From Promethearchaeia archaeon (GTDB taxonomy: Archaea; Asgardarchaeota; Lokiarchaeia; Sigyniarchaeales; SOKP01): 32,000 nucleotides of DNA. Within the stretch, counting starts at the first letter, position 1. Each line of letters starts with the position of its first letter. Positions 18,623-28,626 of this stretch are shown in pieces. The DNA lies in assembly GCA_046497275.1 (NCBI GenBank), contig JAWOFX010000088.1:60001-92000 (forward strand), written 5' to 3'. Position numbers and translations under genes: made by a program. The notes below the pieces were generated by a model, which was given only the letters and a program-made list of their open reading frames with translations, was not told the DNA's origin and made no database searches.

Positions 18623-19552
18623 CTATAATTCTAACATAAATCTAGCTAATTCCTTTTTTCTCTGAAGATTATTCATTAGAGTATTTGTTATAAAAACATT
18701 TATTCCTAAATCTTGAATCCTAGATTTCAGTTCTCTATCTTTATTATCAATAATGAAATTTCCTAAAAACGATTGATAATATTTTGCTACTCCGAAACAA
18801 GAAACTTCCAAGTTTGCCCATTTTAATAATTTATCTGCTGGACCTTTAACAGTTTCTCCAGCAATAATAGGGCTAATTCCATAAACCTTTTCTTTTACTT
18901 TACTTAGAGCTTCCTTTATTCCATTTACCTTTAATATTGTTCCAATGGAAACTATTGGGTTGGAGGGACAAATGATAATTCTCTTTGCTCTTTTTATTAA
19001 ATCTAAAGAAATATCAATAGGATTTGCATTCTTTATCCCTTTAAATTCCACATCTAGAATTTTTGGATTACATCCGTATTTTATATAATATTCTTCAAAA
19101 TGAATAAGTCCTACATTTGTTTTGATATATGTTTGTACCTTTTCATTACACATAGGCATTATTTTCGCTTCTACATCTAACTTATGACAAATTTTTTCAG
19201 TTATTTCTGATTTAGAAAATCCTTCAGAAAAGAGGTCGCTTCTATAGATATGAGTAGCTAAATCCTTATCACCCGCATTAAACCATGAAATATCATAAAA
19301 TTTGGATAATTCCTTTAAACAATGATAACTCTCATTTTGAAACCCCCAGCCTTTCTCTCTATCAATGACATTAGCTAAAGTATAAGTAATTATATCTAAA
19401 TCCGGACATATATAAAGTCCGAATAACTTTATATCATCGGCTGTATTTACTATGACTTTGATCCTTTTTTGATCGATTATATGAGCCAATCCATCAATAA
19501 ATTTAGCCGCACCTACACCTCCAGCTAATAAGAGATAAAAATCATCATTCAT
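18623..19552 (-). CDS. cofD: 2-phospho-L-lactate/phosphoenolpyruvate transferase (F420 biosynthesis, CofD/FbiA)
   Basis: AGGVGAAKF, VNTADD, ICPDLD, GDKDLATH and PSNPIVSI motifs. Confidence 0.95.
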   Translation of the reverse strand: MNDDFYLLLAGGVGAAKFIDGLAHIIDQKRIKVIVNTADDIKLFGLYICPDLDIITYTLANVIDREKGWGFQNESYHCLKELSKFYDISWFNAGDKDLATHIYRSDLFSEGFSKSEITEKICHKLDVEAKIMPMCNEKVQTYIKTNVGLIHFEEYYIKYGCNPKILDVEFKGIKNANPIDISLDLIKRAKRIIICPSNPIVSIGTILKVNGIKEALSKVKEKVYGISPIIAGETVKGPADKLLKWANLEVSCFGVAKYYQSFLGNFIIDNKDRELKSRIQDLGINVFITNTLMNNLQRKKELARFMLEL

Positions 19553-20969
19553 TTAAATTTTCACTTAATTTGTATATTATTTCTTCTAAATTCTTACGTT
19601 TGGGTCGTTTTTGTAATTCTTTGGGATATCCTACAGTAATAAAGGCCATAGGATCAAACTCTTTAGGGAGTTTAAGTATTCTTTTAACTTGCTTTTTTGC
19701 AAATAAGGGAGCACAGTACCAAGAACCAGCTAAACCTTCAGATTCCATTGCTAATAGTAAATATATCGCAGATGTACTTATGCTTTGAACACCTAATAAA
19801 TATTCATTTTGTAATCTTTTTTTATCAGGATAACTTTCCAAATCTGATTTATCTAAACATAATAATATTAAGATTGGAGCTTTTAGAAAACACTTTTTTG
19901 TTTTATCTATTTTATTATTGATAAATTTGGTAGATTTCCCATCTCTGCTTAAATCTTCCCTTAATTTTTCATTCATTTTATCAATTAAAATTTTTCTTGT
20001 TTTCCCTCTCTCTAAAACAATATATCTCCAGAATTGTCCATTATGAGCACTGGGAGCCCATCGAGAAAGATCGATACATTTTTTTACTAAATCTATATTA
20101 ACTGGTTTCTCTAAAAAATCTAATTTATAACTTCTTCTATTCATTAAGATTTTTTTTATATCTTCATTATTTGCTTTCCTAAAAAGATCCTTACTCTTTT
20201 CTCTTAGAATTGAGTTAATTGAAACATCCTCTTTAATCTTATAATTATATCCCTTTATCAAGACAATGGGTATTGCTTCATCTGATTCTCCCATAACTAA
20301 TTGAGCTGCAGCTGCAAGACTGTCTATTTGTCCTATTATAGTGGTTTTTAGCTCTTTTTCATACAAATCTTTTTCCCCTCTCTTATCTAATATGGGGGAC
20401 ATTCCGGATACACCAATAGCAGTCCCCACAGATCCAATCCTAAAAGATCTTCCAAAGGAATCAGAAATAATTACTGCTAAATTTTTATTAGTTTTATTTT
20501 GGATATAGTGTCTAATTTTTCTTGCCTCATTGTCTGGATCATTGGGTAGGAGAGAGATCTTGTTATTTCCTTCCACATTGGATTTATCAATCCCAGCATC
20601 AGCACAAACAAAACCATGTTTCGTTTCGGTGATAAGGACATGTTCTGATTTTATTATTCTGTTTGATTCATCGAGTATTGCTTGTATTAGTTCTGGATTC
20701 TTGATGGGTAAATTAGCCCTTTTGCTTTTTTTTTTGATACTATGATAAATATCAAATGCTCTTTCACTTGGGTGTATTTTATTTAAATCTTTTATTAAAC
20801 CAAGACTTTTTGACACAATTATTTGCGCAATGACTAAAATATCTCCATTATCTAGAAAAACCTCATTTTTAGTTAAGCCTTCTATAATAAGCTCTGCAAT
20901 ATTATCCCCCTCTTTAATTAAGGGAATACCAGTGATTCCAATTAACTCAATACTATTTTTTTTTTGCAT
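19545..20969 (-). CDS. cofE: Coenzyme F420-0:L-glutamate ligase fused to a C-terminal nitroreductase domain (FbiB-type)
   Basis: CofE motifs GIPLIKEGD, CADAGIDKSN, ISDSFGRSFRIG and GESDEAIP; nitroreductase motifs RRSY...APSAHNGQFWRY and DPMAFITVGYP. Confidence 0.93.
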   Translation of the reverse strand: MQKKNSIELIGITGIPLIKEGDNIAELIIEGLTKNEVFLDNGDILVIAQIIVSKSLGLIKDLNKIHPSERAFDIYHSIKKKSKRANLPIKNPELIQAILDESNRIIKSEHVLITETKHGFVCADAGIDKSNVEGNNKISLLPNDPDNEARKIRHYIQNKTNKNLAVIISDSFGRSFRIGSVGTAIGVSGMSPILDKRGEKDLYEKELKTTIIGQIDSLAAAAQLVMGESDEAIPIVLIKGYNYKIKEDVSINSILREKSKDLFRKANNEDIKKILMNRRSYKLDFLEKPVNIDLVKKCIDLSRWAPSAHNGQFWRYIVLERGKTRKILIDKMNEKLREDLSRDGKSTKFINNKIDKTKKCFLKAPILILLCLDKSDLESYPDKKRLQNEYLLGVQSISTSAIYLLLAMESEGLAGSWYCAPLFAKKQVKRILKLPKEFDPMAFITVGYPKELQKRPKRKNLEEIIYKLSENLNE

Positions 20970-25839: not shown

Positions 25840-28626
25840 ATGAAAGATATGAAATATGAGCCTCAGAAAATTGAAGAAAAATGGCAAGAAAGATGGAAAA
25901 GAGATAAAGTTTTTGAAGTAGATGTAGATCCAAAGAAAGATAAATATTATGTACTTGAGATGTACCCCTATCCCTCTTCAAAGTTACATATGGGTCATTT
26001 AAGAAACTATTCAATAGGGGACTCATTTGCTCGTTATAAAAGAATGCAAGGATATAATGTATTATATCCTATGGGATATGATTCCTTTGGACTTCCAGCA
26101 GAAAATGCGGCCATAGATCATGGAGAAAACCCAGAAACCTGGACTAATACTAATATTTCAGCGATAAGGAGTCAACAACAGAGAATAGGACTTTCATATG
26201 ATTGGACACGAATGATTTACAGCCATGATGCTAACTATTATAAATGGGATCAATATTTCTTTCTTAAAATGTTAGAAAAAGATTTGGCCTATCGCCAAGA
26301 ATCGTATGTTAATTGGTGTGAAAAATGTGCTACAGTTCTTGCAAATGAACAAGTTCAAGGAGGAAAATGTTGGCGTTGCGGTTCAGAAGTTACTCAAAAA
26401 TTTTTAACACAATGGTTCTTGAAAATTAGAGCTTATGCAGAGGAATTATTAGATGGATTGGAAAAAGTTGATTGGCCAGAGAAAGTAATAGTTATGCAGC
26501 GGAATTGGATTGGAAAATCTGAGGGAACAGTAATAAAATTCCCAATCGTGGGTGAAAATCGTACCATAGATATATTCACTACCAGAGCAGATACTATCTT
26601 TGGGGTGACATTTATGGTTTTTGCCCCTGAAAATCCTTGGGTAAGAAATTGGGTTGAAGGCACTGAATATGAGGAGGAATTTGAAAAATTATATAATGAT
26701 ACGATGAAACAGAATCAATTTGAAAGGTCTGATGCAGATATTGAAAAAAAAGGGATGTTTATAGGCAAATATGCCATAAATCCGCTGACCAATGAACAGA
26801 TTCCAATTTATATAGGTAATTTTGTTATTTATGAATATGGGGCAGGTGCAATTATGGCAGTTCCCGCCCATGATCAGAGAGATTTTGAATTTGCTAAGCA
26901 ATACGGAATCCCAATTAAAATAGTGATCCAAGCTTTCGATTATGAATTGAATGCTGAGAAAATGACCCGTGCTTATGAAAGTGATGGAATATTAGTAAAT
27001 TCTGGAGAATTTAATGGGATGGAAAACAGAAGAGCTATTCAAGCTATCAGTGAAAAATTAGAGGAAATAGATATGGGATATAGTACCACAAATTATAAAT
27101 TAAGAGATTGGCTTATATCGAGACAAAGATACTGGGGTTGTCCAATACCAATAATTTTTTGCGAAAAATGTGGTACAGTTCCCGTGCCTATAGAAGATTT
27201 GCCAGTAAAATTACCGAAAGATGTTAAATTCACGGGTATTGGTAATCCATTAAAAACGAGTAAAAATTTCTTGAATACTGAATGTCCAAAATGTGGAGGC
27301 AAAGCCACAAGAGAAACGGATACAATGGATACATTTGTTGATAGTGCTTGGTATTTTTTTAGATTTTGTGATCCTAACAACAAGAACAAACCATTTAGTA
27401 AGGAGAAAGTTGATTATTGGGGTAATGTTGATCAATACATAGGCGGAATTGAGCATGCGATTTTGCATTTATTATATGCTAGATTTTGGACTAAAGTTGG
27501 AAGAGATTTAAATCTCCATTCACATAATGAACCTTTTCAAGCGCTCTTAACGCAAGGAATGATAAATAAAATGCATCCTTATTGCCCGAAATGCGAAACT
27601 TTTGCGACCAAAGTTGAAAAAGATATGGAAAAATGTCCAAGATGTAGGACTGATTGGATTGAAAAAAGCGTTAAAATGAGTAAGAGCTTAGGAAATACTG
27701 TAGATCCCAATAATATTATGAAAAAATATGGTGCAGATTCTGCACGGTTCTTCATATTATTTGGAGCAAGCCCAAAGTCTGGTCTTGAATGGTCAGATGA
27801 AGGGGTTGATTTTGCATATAGATTCATGAATAATACACTCAAATTACTGACAGAAGTACCTGAAATTATCAGAGAAAATAAAACCATCAGAGATGATTTA
27901 ATTGAGTTTTATATGCATCACATAATAAAGAAGGTCACAGAAAATTTGAATAAAATTGATATTCGAGATGCAGTCAATAATATTGTTCAGTTTAGTTCGG
28001 AGTTGAAAAATTATAAAAAAGAAGGCGTAAATAAAGAGTTATTCGATAAAATTAGGAAAAATTTGGTACTTCTATTACATCCAATTGCTCCTCATATTAC
28101 TGAGGAAATTTGGGAATTTCTAGGAGAAAATGATTATATCAGTTTAGCCTCATGGCCTAAATACAATAAAAAAATCCTTACAGATGAAAATAGCTTTAAA
28201 TGGAATCTAAAAAATAACATCATTGAAGATATAAAAAACATTAAACAAGTGCTTAAAAAAGATTCTATAGATGAAATTAATCTTATTATTCCTGAAAATT
28301 GGAAGTATAACTTCTATTCAGATTTGATAAGATTAATAGAAAAGACCTTGGATCAAGGAGAAATTATGAAAAATTTAATGGAAAATTCAACATACAAAGC
28401 ACACGGGAGTTTTATTAGTCAAACAGTAAATAAAATATTGAAAAATATTGGAAAATATTCGGATTTTATTCTTTCTGTCGAAGATGAATACAAATTTTTT
28501 AAAGCAATTTCCCCAATTATCGAAAAACAATTTGAAACAACAGTAAATGTGAAAATGGAAAGTGAATCTGATAAAAAAAAAAAAGATCAAGCACTCCCAG
28601 GTAGACCCTCAATAATAATCGATTAG
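25840..28626 (+). CDS. leuS: Leucyl-tRNA synthetase (bacterial-type core, archaeal-type C-terminus)
   Basis: [13 protein letters not shown] (HIGH), CP1 editing motifs FTTRADT and [39 protein letters not shown]. Confidence 0.97.

Follow-up and report, generated by a model that had tools for sequence, protein, structure and literature searches.

How does a leucyl-tRNA synthetase (LeuRS) with a bacterial body come to serve an archaeal cell, and which of its parts would choose the tRNA? The question is raised by a leuS gene in a 32,000-nucleotide stretch of DNA from a Promethearchaeia archaeon (assembly GCA_046497275.1, contig JAWOFX010000088.1, positions 60,001 to 92,000), which we call the window. 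Bacterial and archaeal/eukaryotic LeuRS are among the clearest cases of differing tRNA reading, and a hybrid of the two reveals which module dictates tRNA identity. The original prediction, made from the letters of the window, had proposed a chimera of this kind, with a bacterial catalytic and editing core and an archaeal-type C-terminal end. Our analysis bears this out by profiles, by fold and by six tRNA-reading residues; the motifs on which the prediction had drawn (the HIGH context, CP1 and the tail) are all present, and the protein is a hybrid of the Natrialba magadii kind. We consider it a natural hybrid LeuRS that was probably acquired ready-made by transfer between archaea and displaced the native enzyme. 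The layout of the gene, in coordinates of the window, is as follows.

25840..28626, + strand: leuS, encoding the hybrid LeuRS of 928 aa plus stop (uninterrupted open reading frame and its translation; TIGR00396, 962 bits).
25840..27804, + strand: bacterial-type body, aa 1 to about 655, with Rossmann fold, HMGH, ZN1, CP1 editing domain and KMSKS (profile scores).
26500..27063, + strand: CP1 editing domain, aa 221-408, at the bacterial insertion point (Pfam PF13603, E = 6.3e-68; matches to bacterial CP1 structures).
27574..27654, + strand: four-Cys zinc-ribbon insert (C582, C585, C599, C602) directly before KMSKS (sequence reading; weak Pfam DZR match at aa 579-605).
27673..27687, + strand: KMSKS catalytic loop, aa 612-616 (sequence motif).
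27817..28158, + strand: helical bundle of the anticodon-binding type, aa ~660-773, ambiguous to archaeal-leaning (Pfam PF08264 at aa 691-809).
28159..28623, + strand: archaeal-type C-terminal tRNA-binding domain (CTD), aa 774-928 (archaeal profiles, 1wz2_A alignment, AlphaFold model and Foldseek).
28606..28623, + strand: C-terminal tail P923-S-I925-I-I927-D928, matching P962, I964, I966 and E967 of P. horikoshii LeuRS (1wz2_A alignment).

The bacterial LeuRS model TIGR00396 (leuS_bact) scores 962 bits against a cut-off of 548.4 and aligns its positions 1-808 of 843 to aa 6-813; the match thus stops before the bacterial CTD. That domain of about 60 residues is missing from the hybrid, with profile positions 809-843 unmatched and the VQVNGK..LVNIVV block not found. 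On the whole hybrid protein the archaeal model TIGR00395 (leuS_arch) gives 284.8 bits, below its cut-off of 648.5 and with good alignment only over aa 611-927, and the archaeal model NF008957 gives 352 bits, also below its cut-off; both align aa 611-927 through their final profile position. When the protein is cut into pieces, aa 1-610 scores 843 bits with leuS_bact against 146 bits with leuS_arch, and aa 611-813 scores 127, 112 and 108 bits with NF008957, leuS_bact and TIGR00395, respectively. The best solved-structure relatives of the body are the T. thermophilus and E. coli LeuRS, and bacterial LeuRS align no further than aa 4-783, with identities of 40-50% (a maximum of 49% by tblastn). 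Pfam also matches catalytic segments of class I synthetases, and HMGH (aa 50-53), KMSKS (aa 612), the T-rich editing motif FTTRADT (aa 246) and the editing Asp motif AVPAHDQRD (aa 340) are all intact; WIGKSEG is found at aa 223. ZN1 has the form CxxC..CxxC (aa 160-180) and CP1 comes after it.

The other end of the protein is archaeal. A piece covering aa 800-928 matches archaeal LeuRS models alone, with alignments that run through to the end of both models (E = 2.5e-13 and 8.9e-10); no match was obtained when the same piece was searched against the bacterial LeuRS model; on custom CTD profiles the Asgard hybrids score about 80-94 bits as archaeal and less than 11 bits as bacterial. Among solved structures, P. 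horikoshii LeuRS (1wz2) matches aa 611-927, and in the HMMER alignment its residues 790-966 pair with aa 742-927, the key helix being free of gaps. The P. horikoshii residues D845, I849, P962, I964, I966 and E967 contact A47c and G47d of tRNA-Leu (PMC4005665); all six are kept in the hybrid, as D797, I801, P923, I925, I927 and D928, respectively, and the start of the CTD in the same study (Glu822 of P. horikoshii) corresponds to K774, right after an invariant W-P. The region aa 760-928 was modelled with AlphaFold from a 22-row alignment with archaeal-type CTDs, at a mean predicted local distance difference test score (pLDDT) of 90. Foldseek searches of this model against the Protein Data Bank (PDB) returned at E < 0.05 only 1wz2_A (template modelling score, TM, of 0.71; root-mean-square deviation of 3.0 Å over 160 columns) and human cytosolic LeuRS, with no bacterial LeuRS among these significant matches. 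The terminal motif is by itself weak evidence for an archaeal-type end, because bacterial LeuRS also finish in a look-alike V-P-G-K-L-V-N-I-V-V tail; the claim is confirmed by the profile, fold and residue-by-residue evidence, on which it rests.

The junction between the two parts was located by scoring 50-aa sliding segments on two profiles, each made from 40 LeuRS of one pure type, bacterial or archaeal. The bacterial profile is ahead by 12-94 bits up to segments starting near aa 650, and the archaeal profile takes a lead of 3-10 bits from aa 661, which widens to 14-23 bits from aa 751; pure bacterial and pure archaeal control sequences keep to their own side over the whole scan. On these scores the junction is between about aa 655 and 760. 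The original prediction had split the domains for phylogeny at nt 28141 (aa 768), which is probably too late: the bacterial advantage is gone near aa 655-665, at about nt 27800-27830. The helical bundle is the probable recombination zone. An early switch is likewise seen in one Woesearchaeota and one Poseidoniales hybrid, and two haloarchaeal hybrids and one Micrarchaeota hybrid switch some 60-80 residues later; this difference between lineages is suggestive only, because the two profiles differ little within the bundle.

Just upstream of KMSKS, the zinc ribbon (CPKC..CPRC, aa 582-602, nt 27583-27645) occupies the site at which some bacteria carry a leucine-specific domain, and the bacterial and archaeal profiles both score low over it. 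A CxxC..CxxC insert at this position is found in Asgard hybrids of three families (f1, which is the window's own, f2 and f7; L044 and L047 included) and in the Poseidoniales hybrid L082, and was not found in the Woesearchaeota/DPANN, haloarchaeal and Bacillota/bacterial LeuRS examined. The four-Cys insert may be a synapomorphy uniting the Asgard and Poseidoniales hybrids.

Does the cell depend on this enzyme? The genome is a metagenome-assembled genome (MAG) of 3.85 Mb, estimated at 98.9% completeness and 4.4% contamination. No second LeuRS of archaeal or bacterial type was found in it, the remaining matches being other class I synthetases, which answers the suggestion in the original prediction that an archaeal-type leuS be sought there. 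Four tRNA-Leu genes with anticodons UAG, CAG, CAA and GAG were recovered by Rfam and a pattern search. All four have a long variable arm of the form stem / N-U-A-G / stem, which by our own position count presents A47c, G47d and U47h, and A73 is present in both intron-free genes; A73 and these arm positions are the archaeal identity elements reported for the tRNA-Leu of H. volcanii, P. horikoshii and N. magadii (PMC4005665). ARAGORN reports 13-19 tRNA genes in this genome and Rfam 26, the ARAGORN count being low because many tRNA genes here contain introns. An ARAGORN call of 'Leu(taa) with intron' (C34:37555-37656) was dropped as it does not resemble a tRNA-Leu. Separately, tRNA genes overlooked or wrongly drawn by ARAGORN were noted on contig C34 (- strand, about 18.6 kb from the far end of the contig) and at C77:440-560.

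Judging from the gene content of the genome, the hybrid is the housekeeping LeuRS of this Lokiarchaeia-type Asgard archaeon. The bacterial-type Rossmann/CP1 body would carry out leucine activation, transfer and post-transfer editing, and tRNA-Leu would be selected in the archaeal way by a CTD that reads the variable arm. By homology, the most likely mechanism is that of N. magadii LeuRS1, in which a bacterial engine is joined to an archaeal reader of the tRNA arm; that enzyme needs its CTD and the last residues of this domain for charging and does not charge bacterial tRNA-Leu (Fang et al. 2014, PMC4005665).

How far the hybrid extends within Asgard archaea was surveyed in an even sample of 201 genomes, counting a bacterial-type core where it scored above the family cut-off. 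The core was present in 43 genomes, 38 of which belong to the window's family, with the following distribution.

Family f1 (the window's family): bacterial-type core in 38 of 40 genomes.
Family f2 (sister family): bacterial-type core in 2 of 3 genomes.
Family f7: bacterial-type core in 2 of 43 genomes.
Family f21: bacterial-type core in 1 of 3 genomes.
A further 23 Asgard families: bacterial-type core in none of the genomes.

An archaeal-type LeuRS was found in 174 of the 201 genomes, including every genome of the large families f5, f7, f12 and f22. In f1 it is present in 21 of 40 genomes: 20 carry both genes (among them G183, from the window's own genus), one carries the archaeal type alone, 18 and the window's genome carry the hybrid alone, and one fragmented genome has neither. 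Inheritance of the hybrid from the Asgard ancestor was considered and rejected. All other well-sampled families carry archaeal-type LeuRS, and a reading of the hybrid as an Asgard-wide feature does not survive these counts. By its distribution, the hybrid is a lineage-specific acquisition followed by repeated loss of the native gene, rather than a trait of Asgard archaea as a whole.

The nearest database homologues are 67-80% identical, 925-931 aa long and come from MAGs labelled Promethearchaeota, Lokiarchaeota or Promethearchaeia, in agreement with an Asgard host. The genes flanking the hybrid are also its neighbours in at least six further genomes, drawn from five genera. This points to a single integration and vertical descent within the family thereafter. 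The neighbours of leuS are ordinary metabolic and housekeeping genes, and the G+C content has no sharp break at the gene, its conserved core being a few points richer than the flanks.

As a separate observation, the resident archaeal-type LeuRS L028-L033 (from G183, G049, G198, G109, G113 and G162, in f1 and the sister family) have KMGKS in place of KMSKS. Their HIGH and editing motifs are intact, and they are 54-57% identical between genera as against 67-80% for the hybrid. The KMGKS motif and the divergence of the native copy may reflect relaxed or altered function.

Outside Asgard, an exhaustive search of representatives at 50% identity placed bacterial-core proteins at ranks 1-5, 8, 9, 12, 13 and 15-17. 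The tails of these proteins score as archaeal on the custom CTD profiles, two of them weakly, and the named hybrids among them come from Woesearchaeota, Nanoarchaeota, Nanohaloarchaeota and Pacearchaeota. A scan of species genomes gave full-length matches in Micrarchaeota and Poseidoniales among the matches listed, most of which are bacterial. The bacterial-type core occurs in 41 of 41 sampled Poseidoniales genomes, in frames of about 945-1030 aa, and no archaeal-type LeuRS was found in the four genomes examined for one (G201-G204, from Poseidoniales, Woesearchaeota, Micrarchaeota and a MAG labelled 'Methanobacteriota'). A plasmid-borne leuS of Haladaptatus aligns over aa 1-927 at 37.5% identity.

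Among the DPANN-like sequences, one group has a shortened CTD, with about 245-265 aa from KMSKS to the end. Within it, the hybrid proteins P0129, P0136, P0386 and P0387 and the archaeal-type proteins P0346, P0347, P0356 and P0364 share a near-identical tail, ..KVKPGRPGIYLE, and short-CTD proteins of the two kinds intermix in the CTD tree (support 95). This suggests swapping of modules between hybrid and archaeal-type genes in the DPANN-like group.

The domain-wise phylogenies that the original prediction had proposed place the core among archaeal hybrid cores and the CTD among those of DPANN archaea. In a core tree computed under the posterior mean site frequency (PMSF) model, the Asgard hybrids form a clade (support 99) and fall into one group with all DPANN-type hybrids (95), the two haloarchaeal rows standing apart, close to Fusobacterium and Proteobacteria, at the end of a long branch. 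When named species genomes are included, the Asgard hybrids are sister to Poseidoniales-like hybrids (94) within the DPANN hybrid group (91), and the whole Asgard/Poseidoniales/DPANN group adjoins one of Bacillota and Cyanobacteria. In the CTD tree (aa 765-928) a single group holds the CTDs of the Asgard hybrids (90) and is nested (93) among CTDs of DPANN hybrids and of DPANN and other archaeal-type enzymes, and the resident archaeal CTDs of f1 cluster elsewhere (98). Competing topologies were compared by the approximately unbiased (AU) test, with p-values from IQ-TREE fast searches under the site-homogeneous LG+F+G4 model, on the 74-row core alignment, on 167 columns of the CTD and on 275 columns covering aa 661-928, the latter with the same search effort per tree.

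Taken together, these data argue for a ready-made hybrid acquired from other archaea. The gene would belong to a wider archaeal hybrid clade and would not be a fresh bacterial import into Asgard; the finished hybrid would have reached an ancestor of a single Asgard family or order, established itself at one chromosomal site and then replaced the native archaeal LeuRS, a replacement that would be complete in the window's genome. Our reading is that the Asgard C-terminus probably arrived together with the rest of the gene, its source resembling DPANN or Poseidoniales and not being a resident Asgard gene, and that C-terminal modules have moved repeatedly between genes of the hybrid and archaeal types, DPANN being the clearest case. 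More tentatively, the data could be extended to a large archaeal lineage of hybrid LeuRS with an origin distinct from the haloarchaeal hybrids, a CTD that was re-swapped repeatedly, and family f1 caught midway through displacement. If such a separate lineage is real, it would offer a natural series in which to study the replacement of an essential synthetase under unchanged rules of tRNA identity.

The alternative that survives best, although we think it unlikely, is that one ancient chimera lies behind all bacterial-core LeuRS of archaea (haloarchaeal, Poseidoniales, DPANN and Asgard) and has spread among them. It would account for the identical architecture throughout; over aa 661-928 the best-scoring tree joins Asgard and haloarchaeal hybrids (p = 0.67) and a clade of all hybrids is not rejected (p = 0.06), and in the analysis of Andam et al. 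(2012, PMC3436685) the haloarchaeal form branches deep and points to no particular bacterial donor. The cores tell otherwise, since in both core trees the haloarchaeal ones lie with Proteobacteria and Fusobacterium, away from the other hybrids, and a constraint that unites all hybrid cores, haloarchaeal ones included, lowers the log-likelihood by 101 units (AU p = 0.012). We take this separation as a lean and not a verdict, because the constrained search was a fast one and the haloarchaeal rows are long and compositionally deviant. Haloarchaeal hybrids are also without the zinc ribbon and switch profile about 60 residues later, and on the 167 CTD columns a grouping of Asgard with haloarchaeal hybrids has p = 0.047. 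Where the original prediction had allowed for an independent or a shared hybrid, the evidence leans mostly towards a hybrid shared with Poseidoniales and DPANN but, by the trees and AU tests, not demonstrably with haloarchaea.

A hybrid made in place, in parallel to the haloarchaea, would require that a complete bacterial leuS was taken up and its C-terminal part replaced by recombination with the resident leuS. The opportunity exists, in that both genes reside together in half of the f1 genomes, and such swapping does happen: hybrid CTDs are not monophyletic (p ~ 1e-78 for a single clade on the 167 columns) and are mixed with local archaeal-type CTDs in DPANN. We nevertheless regard this origin as improbable, given a core nested among Poseidoniales and DPANN hybrid cores instead of bacteria, a zinc-ribbon insert common to Asgard and Poseidoniales hybrids, and a best CTD tree that puts the Asgard hybrid with DPANN sequences. 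The AU tests divide on it. A clade of Asgard hybrid and f1 resident sequences is not rejected on the CTD columns (p = 0.11) and is rejected on the 275 columns (p = 0.047); with all Asgard archaeal-type sequences the values are p = 0.013 and p = 0.002, respectively.

A non-canonical role for the hybrid as an accessory paralogue, in the manner of N. magadii LeuRS2 or Sulfolobus LeuRS-I, is very unlikely. Half of the f1 genomes do keep a second, archaeal-type LeuRS, and reduced activity is on record for duplicated LeuRS of archaea (PMC9437257); the hybrid, however, is the sole LeuRS here and in at least 18 related genomes, has its catalytic and editing motifs intact, and is more conserved than the resident KMGKS copies. 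A binning artefact, that is, a contaminant contig from a DPANN or Poseidoniales cell in a MAG with some estimated contamination, can be dismissed on a 132-kb contig whose G+C of 29.6% is like that of the rest of the genome, a gene tree that tracks genus and family codes, the presence of the gene in nearly every f1 genome and flanking genes kept across genera.

Several points weigh against acquisition of a finished hybrid by inter-archaeal transfer as we have set it out. All trees come from quick searches with SH-like approximate likelihood ratio test (SH-aLRT) support only, and the C-terminal region is short; on the CTD columns, as said, a common clade with the f1 resident sequences is not rejected. 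The trees are unrooted, and the direction of transfer, into Asgard, rests on the distribution and co-residence of the genes. The MAG sequence L070 of an unclassified bacterium ('bacterium isolate MEGAHIT-group-1.232', JBDRDD010000017.1) has a true bacterial CTD and a core inside the archaeal hybrid group, so that the hybrid cores are not strictly exclusive; it may represent a relative of the lineage that donated the bacterial part, or the product of a back-transfer. NCBI labels of the f1 homologues conflict (Loki, Hermod, Hod, Thor). Finally, the archaeal mode of recognition is read across by homology only, from N. magadii LeuRS1 and P. horikoshii LeuRS.

Elsewhere in the window, at 18623-20969 on the - strand, a gene for CofD (2-phospho-L-lactate transferase) adjoins one for an FbiB-like fusion of F420:gamma-glutamyl ligase and nitroreductase, both belonging to F420 biosynthesis, here in an Asgard archaeon; they are followed by two radical-SAM genes and a gene for a lipoate-protein ligase.

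The evolutionary setting is of more interest than the gene itself. The data indicate that the hybrid design is broader than a single species, being the standard LeuRS of Poseidoniales, common in DPANN and an invader of one Asgard family. Fang et al. (2014, PMC4005665) and Andam et al. (2012, PMC3436685) describe the hybrid in Halobacteria only, a 2026 preprint presents it as a peculiarity of a single haloarchaeal species, and in the openly searchable literature (subscription journals lying outside our coverage) we found no description of a hybrid LeuRS from Asgard, DPANN or Poseidoniales. The f1 genomes, some with both genes and others with only the hybrid or only the archaeal type, form a natural series for the study of synthetase displacement and of synthetase-tRNA co-evolution. 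The relevance to synthetase ancestry that the original prediction had seen is slight, and the hybrid has no bearing on the origin of the eukaryotic cytosolic LeuRS; all other sampled Asgard lineages retain the canonical archaeal type.

How the hybrid compares with characterized systems can be stated feature by feature. The natural hybrid LeuRS design as such is known, and the novelty here is modest, consisting of the zinc-ribbon insert and possibly the earlier junction. N. magadii LeuRS1 has the same plan, a bacterial-type N-terminal region (Rossmann fold, CP1 and helical bundle) followed by an archaeal-type CTD; in both cases the tRNA-Leu of the host is archaeal with A47c/G47d, and the Ile-rich C-terminal tail (I902 in N. 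magadii) is kept. Unlike the haloarchaeal hybrids, to one of which it is about 37% identical overall, the Asgard protein groups apart by its core, is not adapted to a halophilic life and has the extra zinc ribbon, and its switch near aa 660 seems to come earlier than that in the haloarchaeal proteins, which lies about 110 residues after KMSKS. With the haloarchaeal LeuRS-B (B' and B'') of Andam et al. (2012, PMC3436685) it shares the situation of a bacterial form in archaea that is patchily distributed, coexists with or replaces the archaeal form, has no obvious bacterial donor and has its breakpoint near the C-terminal part. The host phylum is different, the nearest relatives can be identified (the Poseidoniales and DPANN hybrids), and synteny is kept within the Asgard family whereas none was seen for LeuRS-B (PMC3436685).

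Compared with P. horikoshii LeuRS in its tRNA-Leu complex (PDB 1WZ2), the fold of the CTD and all the arm-reading residues are alike, and the CP1 insertion point and catalytic core are bacterial instead. The bacterial enzymes (T. thermophilus 1H3N/2BYT and E. coli 4AQ7) align end to end from aa 6 to about 780, and the core is 40-50% identical to enzymes of Bacillota, Fusobacteria and Thermodesulfobacteriota among the matches listed; what sets the hybrid apart from bacterial LeuRS is an archaeal CTD of about 155 aa in place of the small bacterial one, which contacts the tRNA elbow.

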